IMG/VR virus record: IMGVR_UViG_2721755646_000011
Length of the DNA: 64,000 bases
Source: a virus
Taxonomy: Duplodnaviria > Heunggongvirae > Uroviricota > Caudoviricetes
Reading direction: 5' to 3' (one strand)
In this document: piece after piece, positions 35,001-41,000 of the stretch
Position numbering within the stretch: position 1 is the first letter of the stretch
How the letters are laid out: every line of letters begins with the position of its first letter
Made by a program: the position numbers

Positions 35001-38000
35001 CATGCGTTCATTTTTGCGTACCAGCCCGATAATTCGGGCCTTCAGTTCTTCACGCTGTTCGTGTGTAAAAGGTTTCGCCATAAGCGCCTCCGGCAATCAC
35101 TTTTCCGACACAATACGACCGGATGAATCGACAATCTGCCGAACAATATCCCGGTGCTTGTTCAGCTCCCGCAGCGCGGCGCAGACACGCTCCCACTTCT
35201 GAACCTGACCTTTTGCCCGGCGCAGCTCGCGGTTAGCCACATGCAGCGATGGTAAAATCAGACCATCCGGATGTTTTCTGGTGAACAACGGCTGTGACTG
35301 CACTGTGACCGCCACACTTTCAGTTTTTATTTCTTCCTGTGTTTCCGCTTCCCGGACTGGTAACGCAACACCTGTTGGCTGAGGAAAGGCTTTACCATCG
35401 GTTTCCGTTACCGATGCAGCTTCCGGCTCTGCCGGTAAATCAGCGCCCGGTATGCAGTAACGAAATTTACCGTTCTGATTTACGCGTGCCAGGCTCCCCG
35501 TTGCTGTTACGACCGCCAACGTGGAAGCAACCTTGCGAATGCTAACACCGAACTTATCCGCCAGTTCCTCACACGTTTTAGCCCCATCCTGACAGATAAA
35601 CTCAATCATCATGTCCGCAGTAACTTTTTGTTCGACCTCCCCGGTCAGCACATCCGGTACTTCAGACTGTGCTGGCTGTTCTTCGGTTACCCCGGATTCA
35701 CCTTCACCAGCCAGAAACCAGGTGTGACCCGTTTTATCAACAACGCCATTTTTTTTGAGTTCCCACAGTTCGTTGAGAACTTCTTCACGGCTGATATCAA
35801 GCCGCGCCGCCAGTTCAACAGAATTGGCTTTACCCATCGCTTTCAGTGCATGCAATACGGTTCCCATTAAAATTTCCTCCGGATAAAAATTACTTCTCAA
35901 ATCAGACAAAACCAGCCGCTTTCCGGCGTTCATACTCCTGTTTCAGCAACTCAATTGGCGTTGGTCCCAACGGGCGTTTTGGTGCCGCCAGTTGTCGCCG
36001 TACTGGCGGAACGCTCAGGCCGTTACTAACATGCTTTGCCCATTTCGTCAGCTGCCGTTCTGCAAGCCGTTTTAATTCCCCTTCGGTCATCTGGCGTTCA
36101 ATCCCCTTTGAACGCATCTCGAGGCAAATGTGATACAGCACAGGCTGAGGCCACGGATATTTGTCGCTTCCGTTATATCGCCAGGACTCATTACGCCAGC
36201 GGCGATACTCCTCCATCACAGCATCCACCGTCAGGCCAAATGGATTGGCCCCGCTTTCCGAAATCAGCGCCACAAACTCAGCCAGGTCCGGAGGCCATGT
36301 TTCACCCGCCCGGCAGCGGTCCATGCACTGGCGGCAGACCTGCCGGATTTGCTGCTCAGTCATCGCGCCAATCTGTGCAATCCAGAGCTTCGAAGGTGCG
36401 GCCCCGTTCTTCTGGGTCCAGCGGTTCGAATAAACCTCCCCCATGAGTTCCCACAGCTTCCAGGCCGTTTCCGTCGCTGATAAATCCGTTTTCACGTTCC
36501 CACTGCTCACGTGCTGCCCGAATTTCCTGAACTGCCCGTGATGCGGTGCCACCTGGTGCTGCTGCATGGTTTACCCCCTTGCTGACTGGTTTAACCTGCG
36601 CCCTGACGTGATTTACGTGACGGGCGAATTTCTGCTCCCACTGAATCTGCGTAAACACTTTCCCCTCCGCTGCCCAGTAGTCCCGGAATGCGGTAAGTTC
36701 AGCAGGTGTAAATTCTGTCTCCGGCAAAGCCATCCCCCACAACGCAGCCCGTCGTCGAAAATCCCGTGACGGATACCAGCTATCGGTCATCGGAAATTTT
36801 CCGATGGGTTCGCTCAGGCCATCCAGGAATACATGGGGGGCTGCCTGTAACGACAAAACTTCCTGCTCACTGGTCGGAGCACTCTCGCGTGCGTTATGTG
36901 TGGGGTTTAGATCTTTGGGTTCCTTTGGGTTCCGTGATCCGTTTTTGGGTGTCTTTGATGGAAAATTTGGGTGTCTTTGGTTATTTTCCATGCAACAAAG
37001 AGTTCCGTTTTTGGGGCTCTTTTGTGCTGAAACATAACCGTTTTCGGTACTGTTTTTATTAACAGCACCAATTTTACCCACCTTTAAAGACACCCGTTTT
37101 TGGGTGTATTCAGGCTCGGCAACACTTTCTTCTACACCGATAAGTCGGTACACCACAATTTGCTTTGTTCTGCCTTTTCTCTCACCGGTATCAACAATTA
37201 ACCCAATCTCCATCAGGTGTCGTAAGCTGTCCTGCACAGTCTTTTTGTTCAGTTCCGTTACTTCTGCCAGTGCAGATACAGACGGGTATGCACACAAATC
37301 GGCACCGCACATATCAGCAAGCCAGGTCAATACAGACTTACTGGATGAACTGCCGGTTTTCACCTTTTTAGCCCATCGTAGTGCATCGATACTCATACGA
37401 ACCCCTGGCAGATATTTGTTTATCTGCAAAGTAATATTGATACTGCTGACGATACGCATGCTTGAAAGCAATAGCTTTTTCTATAAGCTCGTCAGTCTCA
37501 CGTTCCACAACAGCTGGATCCGCAAAAAGCAGCCCGGACTCCACCACATCGCCATATTCTTTGTTTAATCCGGCGATCATGTACGTAATGCTTTTTCCAT
37601 CACTGATCTCACGATACAACCTGAAATCACTAATTCGGATAGCCTCCATAATTGCCGGAATCAGCGCCGTGAATTTTTCCCGCTTATCCCTGGTGTCGAT
37701 AGCTTTCCAGCGTTCGAATATCTTCACCCGGTTAACGCCCAGCGCCCGTTGATCAACCTCGCCATCATTAAACGTGACGCGTTGAACATCGATGTTCGGG
37801 CGTTCTTTCAGAGCCCAGAATGCTTCCGTGATTAATATCGTCGCCTGCTCCTGTGTCATTCCTGGTCGACATACCCAGGCATCCAGAGCCTCACAAACCT
37901 GTTCAGGGGTGATTTTCATTGTTCAACCGCCCCGCCCGCTTTGCCTTACGATATTCGTCATAAACTTTGGGGTCGTACTGAAGTTCCCCGCCGGATGCCT

Positions 38001-41000
38001 CTTGCAGGCGCATCGCGCGACCTTCAGGAACCAGTTCCCCCCATTGAGAAACAGCAGATGGATCAACACCAGCAGCTTTCGCTACTTTGGCTTTCGTCCC
38101 ATAAAAATTAATTACGTCTGATTTAAACATCACCCCTCCAAAGTTGAGTTTTCTCAATAGTAATCACTCAAGGAATCTCAAGTCAAGGGTGATTAAGATA
38201 TCTAAATATGAACGAGAAAACTTTAGGTCAACGAATTAGAGAAAGACGCAAACAGGTTGGTTTAAGTCAAAACGATTTAAGCAAAGCCGCTGGCGTATCT
38301 GGCTCATCAATTTCACTATGGGAAAGCGACCATACAGCCCCGCGCGGGCAAAATTTGCATCGCCTGGCTGAGGTATTGCAATGTTCACCAACTTGGATAC
38401 TGTTTGGTGACGAGGATAAAACACCAGATCCACCAGTTGCACTCAACAGCGCCTTAGACTTATCGGAAGATGAGTTGGAGATGTTGCGATTGTATCGCGC
38501 ACTTCCAAAATCAGAGCAGCAAGCACAAATCAGCGAACTCCGTGCCCGCGTTGAGAATTTTAATCGCCTATTCACCGAGCTACTAGAAGCTCGCAAACGT
38601 AACAAACATCAGTAACCCCCTTCACAAATTTTAAAGCCTTACATTTCAATGTATTGGCTTTATTTTGCATTAAATATTGAGTTTTCTCATTAAAAATACT
38701 TGACCAACATTCATGAGAAAACTAAATTACCACCCATCAAGACACCGCACGGTGTTCTCAGCAAACAGTTCCGCTACCCGGCGTTAAGGGGAAATGAGGT
38801 CAGCATGGATACTATCGATCTTGGCAACAGCGAATCTCTGGTATGTGGCGTGTTCCCCAACCAGGACGGCACGTTCACCGCGATGACGTATACCAAAAGC
38901 AAAACGTTTAAAACCGAAAATGGTGCCCGTCGCTGGCTGGAAAGAAACTCAGGTGAGTGATATGGATTTCGACACAATCATGGAAAAGGCTTATGAAGAA
39001 TACTTCGAAGGTCTTGCCGACGGCGAAGAAGCTCTCAGCTTCAACGAATTTAAACAGGCGCTTTCCAGCTCGGCAAAATCTAACGGCTGATAAGCGAAAC
39101 AGCACCGCGAGGAATCAGTATGCAGAAACGAGAACCCGTCATCATCGCACCAGACTATACCGATGATGAACTTTATGAGTGGATGCGCCAGAAAATTAAT
39201 GCAGCGCAGGATCTGAAATGGGCCAATGAAGCCAGGGCTAAGCAGGCTGAAAAACTGTCCGCTCTGGAGCAGGATATCACCAATCTGGAAAAAGCAGCGG
39301 CATTAAGCATTGCCAGAATGATTACATACCCGCGTTAATAGCTAACCAACGAAGCTAAGGTTGGTAATTAAGTAGTTCTCCACGGGTGAGGTGGAGTGCG
39401 TGCGCCGGACGCGGGTGAGCATCCGGCACTGACAGTTTACTGAAAGGATATTTCCCTGAAAAGTCAGACCATAACGCGAAAGCGCACGGCGAGGTAGCTG
39501 GTTCATAGATAGCCTGTCGTTAAATTTTCGTCGACCGTGCGCTTCCGGTTGTGGCAACCCGCGAAATGGTGCGGCGGTAAGTATGGCGGGGTTATTTCTT
39601 CCCCGTTGAGGACACCGGGTTGTCAGGTTGACCATACGCTTAAGTGACAACCCCGCTGCAACGCCTTCTGTTATCAATTTTCTGGTGACGTTTGGCGGTA
39701 TCAGTTTTACTCCGTGACTGCTCTGCCGCCCTTTTTAAAGTGAATTTTGTGATGTGGTGAATGCGGCTGAGCGCACGCGGAACAGTTAAAGCTAAAAACA
39801 GCGTTATGGGTGATTCTGTATTCCGGCGTTAATTGTTAACTGGTTAACGTCACCTGGAGGCACCAGGCACCACATCACAAAATTCATTGTTGAGGACGCG
39901 ATAATGGAAACGTCACTACCAAACGTTAATACGTCTGAAGGGTGTTTTAATATTGGTATTCTGCTCAGTAACCGGGAGTTTACTGAAGACGCCATCAGGA
40001 TGAGAAAATATGAGCCTTATCTTCTCAATGATAATTCCATACTCTCCAGAATTGCCCTTCTTGAACTTGGCATTTTCGGAGGGCAGCAGTGAGTTCAGCG
40101 TTTGCACTGATGATGACGGTTTTTCTTATAACAGGTGAGCCACAGAATGTGATTACCGGAATTTATGCCAGTAAAGAATCCTGCCATCAGGCAAGAGACG
40201 AGCAAAAAATTTCCGGTGAATGTCTCCCGTTAAACAAAGTATCGCTGTACCTGAATAACGAAATACCGGCTGGATAACCCGCCAGCCGTATTAACGCCAT
40301 ACCCGTTGATTAAGCATGCCAGCAATGGCAGGGATTCGTACAACCTTAAAATAGTTATGAGGTTTATCAATGAGCACTGATAAAGAAGAAATTGCACTGT
40401 ATTACGAAGCCAAAAATGACAAAGTCAGAAAACGCCTTGGGATTAAAGGCGGTTTTTACTGGCGCACAGCAAAAAAATTATCGGTTGCAATATCACGGGG
40501 TGTTGTCGCAATGGACGATGCTGGATTTGACGAAGAGGATTTCAAAAAACCTGTTCGCGTGAATTTGCCCATTGTTAATGACCTGCCGCCTGAAGGTGTG
40601 TTCGATACTGAATTCTGCAACCGCTATGAAAAAGGCGGGGAAGATGGCATCACAATGATATTTATAGCGCCTTCCCCCTCAGTTCAGGACAAACCAGCCA
40701 GCTCTGACAATACCAACGTCAATGGCGAAGACATGGCTGAGATTGAGGATAATATGCTCCTGCCGATTTCCGGTCAGGAACTGCCCATTCGCTGGCTTGC
40801 GCAACATGGCAGCGAAAAACCGGTAACGCACGTTTCACGGGAAGAACTTCAGGCATTACATATCGCACGAGCTGAAGAACTGCCTGCTGTTACTGCCCTG
40901 GCTATTTCCCACAACACAAAGCTGCTCGACCCGCTGGAGATTCGCGACCTTCACAAACTGGTACGCGACACAGACAAAGTTTTCCCTAATCCCGTTAATT

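Follow-up and report, generated by a model that had tools for sequence, protein, structure and literature searches.

A Qin-like dicC-dicA and dicF-dicB region in a lambdoid prophage inserted in ompW

Introduction

What does the dicC-dicA and dicF-dicB region, known from the Qin prophage of Escherichia coli K-12, represent when it is carried by a lambdoid prophage with otherwise open genes, and does it specify the same immunity? This question was raised by a stretch of 64,000 nucleotides from the IMG/VR record IMGVR_UViG_2721755646_000011 (Caudoviricetes), hereafter the window, in which a first-pass annotation made from the sequence had placed a Qin-type immunity region and the operon ydfA-ydfB-ydfC-dicF-dicB-ydfD at positions 37903-40277. 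In K-12, DicA represses the promoter dicBp, and Rem derepresses it 165-fold and provokes a filamentation that depends on DicF and DicB (bioRxiv 10.1101/2023.04.14.536235). Published work has also established that DicA and DicC of K-12 act as a bistable switch, that DicF is processed in K-12 by RNase III as well as by RNase E, and that repressors devoid of a peptidase domain are released by antirepressors. We conclude with high confidence that the 2375-bp interval comprises the immunity switch, together with the beginning of the early-left operon, of a lambdoid ompW prophage from an O157:H7-like (Shiga-toxin-type) E. coli, and that this prophage is an undecayed relative of the phage from which K-12 Qin derives.

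Results

The interval carries a dicC-dicA switch arranged as in Qin and in lambda

Each of the elements that the first-pass annotation had named in the interval was recovered there by Pfam and Rfam searches and by alignment to K-12 (Table 1). DicC, DicA, YdfA, DicB and YdfD scored above the curated Pfam cut-offs and all of them belong to phage protein families (PHROGs); the open reading frames (ORFs) proposed as DicA, DicB and YdfD matched these proteins, and the seed of DicF was unaltered. Gene identities and gene order, promoter and operator motifs, the identity of DicF and the open frames were all observed in the window itself. The order dicC / dicA / ydfA-ydfB-ydfC-dicF-dicB-ydfD is that of Qin (b1569-b1576), the operon promoter is at the same position, DicF is identical, and rem and hokD are found upstream in the same order. 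The genes for replication, the exonuclease, lysis and the virion, as well as xis and int, are all intact in the window, whereas in Qin they are deleted or present as pseudogenes; furthermore, the dicB C-terminus, like ydfD, corresponds to another allele.

The module had been said to replace the cI/cro/N region of lambda, and gene identities, order and position were as described. As in lambda, transcription of the repressor gene runs in the direction of the leftward early operon: downstream of dicA come a promoter-operator set of its own and then ydfABC-dicF-dicB-ydfD-exo-xis-int, an arrangement comparable to that of lambda cI and the pL operon. The Cro-type gene dicC is divergent from dicA and heads the replication operon; like lambda cro, it faces the YdaT/CII-like gene (which comes next after dicC in the early operon equivalent to the rightward one), the replication genes and Q, and both early promoters carry operators. 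Unlike the lambda repressor, DicA has no RecA-cleavable domain: the Pfam search matched only HTH_3, HTH_31 and Phage_CI_repr, and no S24 peptidase domain was detected. A further difference from lambda is that ydfABC-dicF-dicB stands in place of N-cIII-kil; neither N nor nut was found in the window, and no N-type antiterminator was found in Pfam or PHROGs among the proteins of the early-left operon.

Between the dicA stop codon and the dicB-operon promoter, an AAAGCC...GGCTTT hairpin followed by a T-run is present at 38634-38668 (plus strand) and is likely the dicA terminator. It has a 17-nt loop and was overlooked by a pattern scan.

Operators differ from those of K-12 and are shared with an isolated phage

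A perfect palindrome, TTGAGTTTTCTCAA, was identified at 38144-38157, abutting the predicted minus-strand dicC promoter (-35 TTGACT, 18-bp spacing, -10 TACTAT). Two near copies, TTGAGTTTTCTCAT at 38677-38690 and ATGAGAAAACTAAA at 38713-38726, bracket the -35 hexamer of the predicted dicB-operon promoter (-35 TTGACC at 38700-38705, spacing of 17, -10 TAAATT at 38723-38728). The copies at 38144, 38677 and 38713 all overlap predicted sigma-70 promoters, so that both divergent early operons are covered, and DicA would be expected to bind at these TTGAG-N4-CTCAA palindromes. In the temperate phage mEp460_ev081, all three operators are identical to those of the window and the neighbouring bases vary.

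At the same places, K-12 carries the consensus TTAGY-N4-RCTAA as against TTGAG-N4-CTCAA in the window. The operator recognition of K-12 is not matched by the window, as the half-sites differ and the helix-turn-helix (HTH) regions of DicA and DicC have diverged. Overall, DicA is 54% identical to K-12 DicA, with a diverged HTH region; DicC is 70% identical at the amino acid level, its C-terminal 45 residues being nearly identical and its N-terminal HTH part diverged. Because both the operators and the HTH parts of the two regulators differ from those of K-12, the layout is Qin-like and the immunity specificity is not, and the designation of a Qin-type immunity region was retained for the former and abandoned for the latter. 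From these sequence differences, the element of the window is expected to be heteroimmune to K-12 Qin.

The alignment to K-12 Qin was mosaic, with three collinear blocks at 84-95% nucleotide identity. DNA identity was about 95-98% across a stretch that starts just upstream of ydfA and extends to the first third of dicB, reaching 100% over DicF and its 3' flank, and it was about 90% over the 3' half of dicC. Different alleles are present in the segments of dicC and dicA that encode the HTH, in both promoter-operator regions, in the remainder of dicB and in ydfD.

An identical DicF and divergent alleles of dicB and ydfD

DicF had been described as essentially intact, and it was found to be identical to the K-12 RNA at all 53 positions. 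It scored 76.7 bits with the Rfam model RF00039 (gathering score 48) at 39680-39731, over model positions 1-52. It sits between ydfC and dicB, with a rho-independent terminator hairpin GGCGG...CCGCC and then TTTTT at 39732-39736. The segment 39339-39905, which comprises the spacers on either side of DicF, gave a minimum free energy z-score of -5.6. Counting back from the published 190-nt K-12 species, RNase III would cut near 39542. An ORF of 111 amino acids is present on the minus strand (39342-39677), wholly within the conserved structured ydfC-dicF spacer, and the Prokaryotic Genome Annotation Pipeline (PGAP) reports a 54-aa 'hypothetical protein' at 39342-39506. This ORF had no family match and overlaps the conserved structured RNA; as a gene, it is probably spurious.

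DicB and YdfD had been called full length, and both 62-aa ORFs are indeed intact, yet they are 58% and 46% identical to their K-12 counterparts, respectively. Residues 1-62 of DicB align to positions 1-62 of the 62 positions of the Pfam profile, and the protein is 90% identical to DicB of the O145:H28 ompW prophage (PPompW) and 66% identical to that of mEp460_ev081. The ydfD homologue has a GTG start that overlaps the dicB stop codon. Further downstream, the exonuclease (814 aa) combines an ExoVIII N-terminal domain with an Rv2179c-like 3'-5' exoribonuclease domain; its gene is open in the window, whereas the annotations of EC4115, TR01 and certain other nearly identical genomes record a frameshift in it.

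A rem homologue as candidate antirepressor gene

The rem homologue is located between hokD/sok and a DUF968 gene, in synteny with ydfU-rem-hokD of Qin and at 84% nucleotide identity. No LexA box (CTGT-N8-ACAG) was found upstream of rem, the six matches in the window lying elsewhere, and control of rem by LexA was rejected on the basis of this result.

Following the K-12 model, DicA, a short CI-like repressor without a self-cleavage domain, would bind the 14-bp palindromes that lie at the dicC promoter and flank the -35 hexamer of the dicB-operon promoter and thereby keep both early operons off, DicC acting as a Cro-like counter-repressor. As DicA is not RecA-cleavable, release is expected to occur either through the Rem-like antirepressor encoded 5.7 kb away or by spontaneous switching. 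A single transcript extending from 38729 on would then carry ydfA-ydfB-ydfC, DicF with a long structured spacer before it and another structured spacer after it, and then dicB, ydfD, the exonuclease gene, xis and int. DicF would be cut from this transcript by RNase III (near 39542 by homology) and RNase E and would block ftsZ translation, DicB, a division inhibitor dependent on MinC and ZipA in K-12, would redirect MinC to the septum, and YdfD may act as the small lysis protein that it is in K-12. Inhibition of cell division upon derepression would be expected by analogy with the K-12 Rem experiments, and the steps of DicA binding, induction and RNA processing, together with any activity of the divergent alleles of DicB and YdfD, are likewise modelled on experiments in K-12.

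Table 1. Features of the window discussed in the text, in order of position, with two occurrences of the dicB leader in other sequences (last line)
Feature	Position	Strand	Remarks
AgvB	27463-27524	+	96.5 bits
STnc100, true member	27526-27718	-	144.5 bits; adjoins AgvB
Weak tRNA-like match	27804-27863	-	37.3 bits
rem homologue, candidate antirepressor of DicA-type repressor	32147-32407	-	BLASTP, 73% identity to K-12 Rem
hokD/sok type I toxin-antitoxin locus	32625-32949	-	sok 111.7 bits; adjoins rem
YdaT / CII-like gene	37368-37919	-	Pfam YdaT_toxin; PHROG 163 (CII-like activator) 144 bits
dicC, Cro analogue	37903-38130	-	75 aa; Pfam P22_Cro (PF14549) 64 bits, cut-off 30.2
dicC promoter and putative operator region	38144-38186	.	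palindrome, hexamers, two CTCAAG half-site repeats between the hexamers
dicA, CI analogue	38208-38615	+	135 aa; Pfam HTH_3, HTH_31, Phage_CI_repr
dicB-operon promoter, pL analogue	38677-38728	+	predicted; position of K-12 dicBp in the alignment
ydfA	38805-38960	+	51 aa; Pfam DUF1391 96.2 bits; 96% identity to K-12
ydfB	38962-39090	+	42 aa; 95% identity to K-12; PHROG 2061
ydfC	39120-39338	+	72 aa; 99% identity to K-12; PHROG 1744
ydfC-dicF structured spacer, DicF precursor leader	39339-39678	+	340 nt; about 97% identical to K-12
DicF small RNA	39679-39731	+	53/53 nt identical to K-12, both pairing regions included
dicF-dicB structured spacer	39732-39899	+	about 170 nt; 21-bp closing helix around three hairpins; dicB Shine-Dalgarno directly after
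dicB, ompW-prophage allele	39904-40092	+	62 aa; Pfam DicB (PF05358) 115.7 bits, cut-off 27
ydfD homologue	40089-40277	+	62 aa; DUF1482 (PF07358) 53.8 bits, cut-off 25
Remainder of early-left operon	40370-44235	+	exonuclease 40370-42814, xis 42879-43127, int 43105-44235
ompW 3' fragment, att-side (int-side) junction	44279-44405	.	EC4115 PGAP: 'OmpW family ... missing N-terminus'
Same leader elsewhere	L009 3496-3685; L008 3505-3703		

A structured leader shared by dicB and kilR

The spacer between DicF and dicB matched the STnc100 model (RF02076) with 39.8 bits at 39729-39936, below the gathering score of 47; on related leaders, the same model gave 43.8 bits for Rac-SA53 and 32.9 bits for phage 75/02. 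IMG/VR was scanned for the motif CACCNGGAGGCACCNGGCACC, and the counts given here cover the retrieved contigs. Among the 132 instances, the two free positions take just two combinations, each pair being mutually complementary. The G..C combination, found in 108 of the 132, corresponds to free-standing STnc100 copies in which the downstream ORF is inconsistent. The U..A combination accounts for the other 24 and is mostly located 19-32 nt upstream of a division-inhibitor gene: DicB is encoded after 13 of these motifs, plus the window copy, and KilR after 8, the remainder preceding other, unidentified ORFs. A GGCGG...CCGCC-U5 hairpin precedes all of the distinct U..A copies that could be fully extracted (23/23); this hairpin is DicF itself in the dicB phages and is DicF-like in the kilR phages.

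Using RNAalifold on 14 distinct copies, 44 pairs were obtained and 98.4% of the cells were paired. Compensatory changes were seen in 6 pairs, compared to 1.5 +/- 0.9 in shuffles (0/500 reached six) and to one at most when partners were slid. On this modelling, the dicF-dicB spacer is a structured RNA supported by covariation; its resemblance to STnc100 is distant. The dicB Shine-Dalgarno sequence lies just outside the closing helix, so that a plain masking of the ribosome site is unlikely, and a role in processing, stabilisation or read-through is possible. More speculatively, and with a probability that we consider low, the spacer might be a conserved cis-acting RNA distantly related to the free-standing prophage sRNAs STnc100 and PasD and form, with a DicF-type hairpin and dicB or kilR, a portable cassette tuning the expression of the inhibitor and of exo-xis-int without N; on this reading, processing, stabilisation or read-through would depend on the 21-bp closing helix. 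An antiterminator RNA of the HK022 put type was considered and dropped, the STnc100 model and all other Rfam families being blank on the HK022 early regions.

In Rac-type and some Shiga toxin (Stx) phages, this leader is located behind a DicF-like terminator hairpin and precedes kilR, a gene unrelated to dicB.

The prophage and its chromosomal neighbour

The lambdoid prophage is about 44.5 kb long and is inserted in ompW, the far ompW repeat being located, by comparison with TW14359, about 180-430 bp beyond position 1 of the window. To the left of dicC are found the YdaT/CII-like gene, O-/P-type replication genes, a nin-like region with hokD/sok, the rem homologue, DUF968, RusA and Q; further left are the genes for a methylase, lysis, terminase, portal and a fused protease-capsid protein, and a full set of tail genes of the lambda type.

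To assess completeness, 46 coding sequences (CDS) from EC4115 and TW14359 were translated and sought in the window. Forty-five of the 46 were matched without internal stops, 43 of these over the full reference length; the exceptions are an Rz-type lysis protein, whose alignment begins only at reference residue 9, and gpI, whose alignment stops at residue 191 of 192. One hypothetical ORF of the lysis region had no match in the window. The int, xis, replication, Q, lysis, terminase, portal, capsid and tail genes are open and essentially full length, and an IS1 insertion sequence (IS) is present at 1315-2012 in the accessory end of the prophage. The description of the prophage as complete was thus borne out for the reading frames; of the attachment sites, the window contains the int-side junction and the far one lies beyond its edge, and the accessory end carries the IS1.

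Compared to the TW14359 and EC4115 prophages, which are otherwise 98-100% identical, two segments are mosaic: the tail-tip gene J (4588-7986, minus strand), with 84% amino acid identity and about 26 aa shorter, and the lysozyme/Rz genes (23470-24470, minus strand), with 87-94% nucleotide identity. In the late region, between the methylase gene and a DUF6645 gene, a cluster of RNA genes at 27463-27863 (Table 1) occupies the position of the tRNA and stx genes in Stx phages. To the right of the ompW fragment, at 44279-64000, a second, tandem ompW prophage is represented by its effector end, with nleG, espM1, nleF, nleH1-2, nleA, ISEc8 and further IS remnants; tail-fibre and J genes come after these. 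Tandem ompW prophages have been described in O157:H7 (Nakamura et al., bioRxiv 10.1101/2020.11.04.367953).

Relatives and distribution of the module

The interval is 100% identical to several O157:H7 chromosomes (EC4115, TW14359, TR01 and others), in which the PGAP annotation already names dicB, ydfC, ydfB, DUF1482 and two regulators. With a 24.9-kb query, the best complete genomes covered 95-100% at 98.5-99.9% identity and none was identical. Of 5426 complete E. coli genomes, 3946 contain DicF at an identity of at least 95%, a single genome having as many as 7 copies, and parts of the interval were present in 4648 genomes. The module is also found in the isolated phages HannyBb, Tritos and PhiR42_1 and in O145:H28 ompW prophages. 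The novelty implied by the first-pass annotation did not survive this comparison, as the same module has been published in prophages of enterohaemorrhagic E. coli (EHEC) and in a functional phage. This is an ordinary module with existing annotations and published descriptions, and nothing in it is new.

The functional phage is mEp460_ev081 (LR597641; a temperate phage from the infant gut virome), which carries dicB, dicF, dicAC and rem (Ragunathan et al., bioRxiv 10.1101/2023.04.14.536235). Its immunity region is 95% identical to that of the window, with identical operators; its DicF also scored 76.7 bits, and its gene order is the same, rem-hok ... ydaT-dicC-dicA ... dicF-dicB-ydfD-exo-xis-int. 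It differs by a K-12-like DicB allele, a partly different ydfABC segment, a different integrase and its status as a free phage genome. The PPompW prophages of Shiga-toxin-producing E. coli O145:H28 and O157:H7 share the integration site, the lambdoid layout and the annotated dicA, dicC, ydfC and dicB genes (bioRxiv 10.1101/2020.11.04.367953), and they also occur as tandem ompW prophages with nleA, nleH, nleF, espM and nleG effector loci, as seen to the right of the window prophage. In contrast, their alignment takes in no more than 58% of the 2375-bp interval, at 95% identity, and the late regions vary.

Many pathogenic strains carry several dicBF prophages (PMC7873438, PMC6832061), and Melson and Kendall (2019), as cited in these two articles, counted four copies of dicF in EHEC Sakai and 86-24. 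The DicF of the window is one such prophage-borne copy of EHEC O157:H7, with no substantial difference. The systems racR/ydaS-kilR of Rac and GfoR/GfoA of Gifsy are similar in that a short peptidase-less repressor is under antirepressor control and that the early-left operon encodes a division inhibitor, preceded by a DicF-like terminator hairpin and by the same structured leader. Unlike the window prophage, Rac encodes an inhibitor, KilR, that is unrelated to DicB, and its hairpin lacks the DicF sequence (41 bits, below the cut-off); the Gifsy antirepressors are LexA-controlled, whereas there is no LexA box near rem in the window. Among the Sakai prophages, peptidase-less repressors are encoded by Sp4, Sp6, Sp9 and Sp10, of which Sp6, Sp9 and Sp10 were not induced by mitomycin C, and a marked Sp10 could be transferred to K-12 (Asadulghani et al.). 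The identity of the window prophage with Sp10 is not established, as Asadulghani et al. put Sp10 at the Rac attachment site and the window prophage is in ompW.

Discussion

The reading that we favour is that of an immunity switch and early-left operon belonging to an undecayed relative of the phage that gave rise to Qin; derepression of the switch would inhibit cell division. Several observations weigh against it. Neither a LexA box nor any other obvious trigger was seen upstream of rem, and the antirepressor activity of Rem has been published for K-12 only. More generally, the functional steps proposed for the allele set of the window are drawn from K-12 experiments, and with 58% and 46% identity its DicB and YdfD are far from the K-12 proteins that were tested. 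The dicC-dicA spacer contains one perfect operator as against two or three in K-12. DicF brings its own terminator ahead of dicB, exo, xis and int, and no N-like antiterminator was found. Lastly, the duplex predicted by RNAduplex between DicF and the ftsZ leader of TW14359, although at -31.8 kcal/mol it extends across the Shine-Dalgarno sequence, was equalled in 86 of 1000 shuffles of DicF; it was not used as independent support, and since its energy is not distinguishable from that of shuffles, the proposed DicF-ftsZ pairing relies on the identity of DicF with the K-12 RNA.

A competing view is that the prophage is gene-complete yet does not give a working phage, and that dicAC-dicBF is kept as a host cassette, as in Qin, for phage exclusion through DicB and ManYZ and for oxygen-responsive virulence control by DicF. 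We hold this to be the less probable account and give it appreciable weight. The PPompW of O145:H28 was excised and circularised after mitomycin C treatment and no packaged DNA was found (bioRxiv 10.1101/2020.11.04.367953), an observation that also counts against an active phage in our reading. Mitomycin C failed to induce Sakai prophages whose repressors lack a peptidase domain, and lysogens gave no visible particles (Asadulghani et al.); the accessory end of the window prophage carries IS1 and its far att site falls outside the window, and the near-universal presence of DicF in E. coli genomes suggests retention at the level of the host. However, IS1 lies outside the morphogenesis genes, and the reference CDS are open and full length or nearly so in all cases but one, including the exonuclease gene that is frameshifted in EC4115. 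Furthermore, mEp460_ev081, an infectious isolated phage, has the same immunity region together with DicF, dicB and rem, and the transfer of Sp10 to K-12 shows that another prophage with a peptidase-less repressor could move.

It is also conceivable, and in our judgement improbable, that the divergent dicB and ydfD alleles have lost or changed their function and that derepression inhibits division via DicF alone. Relative to K-12, DicB differs over its C-terminal two-thirds and YdfD over most of its length, and a mosaic junction falls inside dicB. Against this, both ORFs are intact and retain the overlap of stop and start codons, their scores are far over the Pfam cut-offs (Table 1), and the conservation of the DicB allele at 90% identity in the O145:H28 PPompW argues for selection.

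As a discovery, the region carries little weight: it is the correct annotation of a well-studied module, with variant alleles of DicB and YdfD. As the window alleles would be heteroimmune to Qin and homoimmune to mEp460_ev081, the details of DicA and its operators in K-12 are not expected to be transferable base for base. Provided that the prophage is the undecayed relative that we favour, the window shows Qin as it was before decay, in a pathogen lineage in which DicF copies have already been linked to virulence control, and the leader shared by dicB and kilR could help explain how a toxic division inhibitor is dosed in phages without N.

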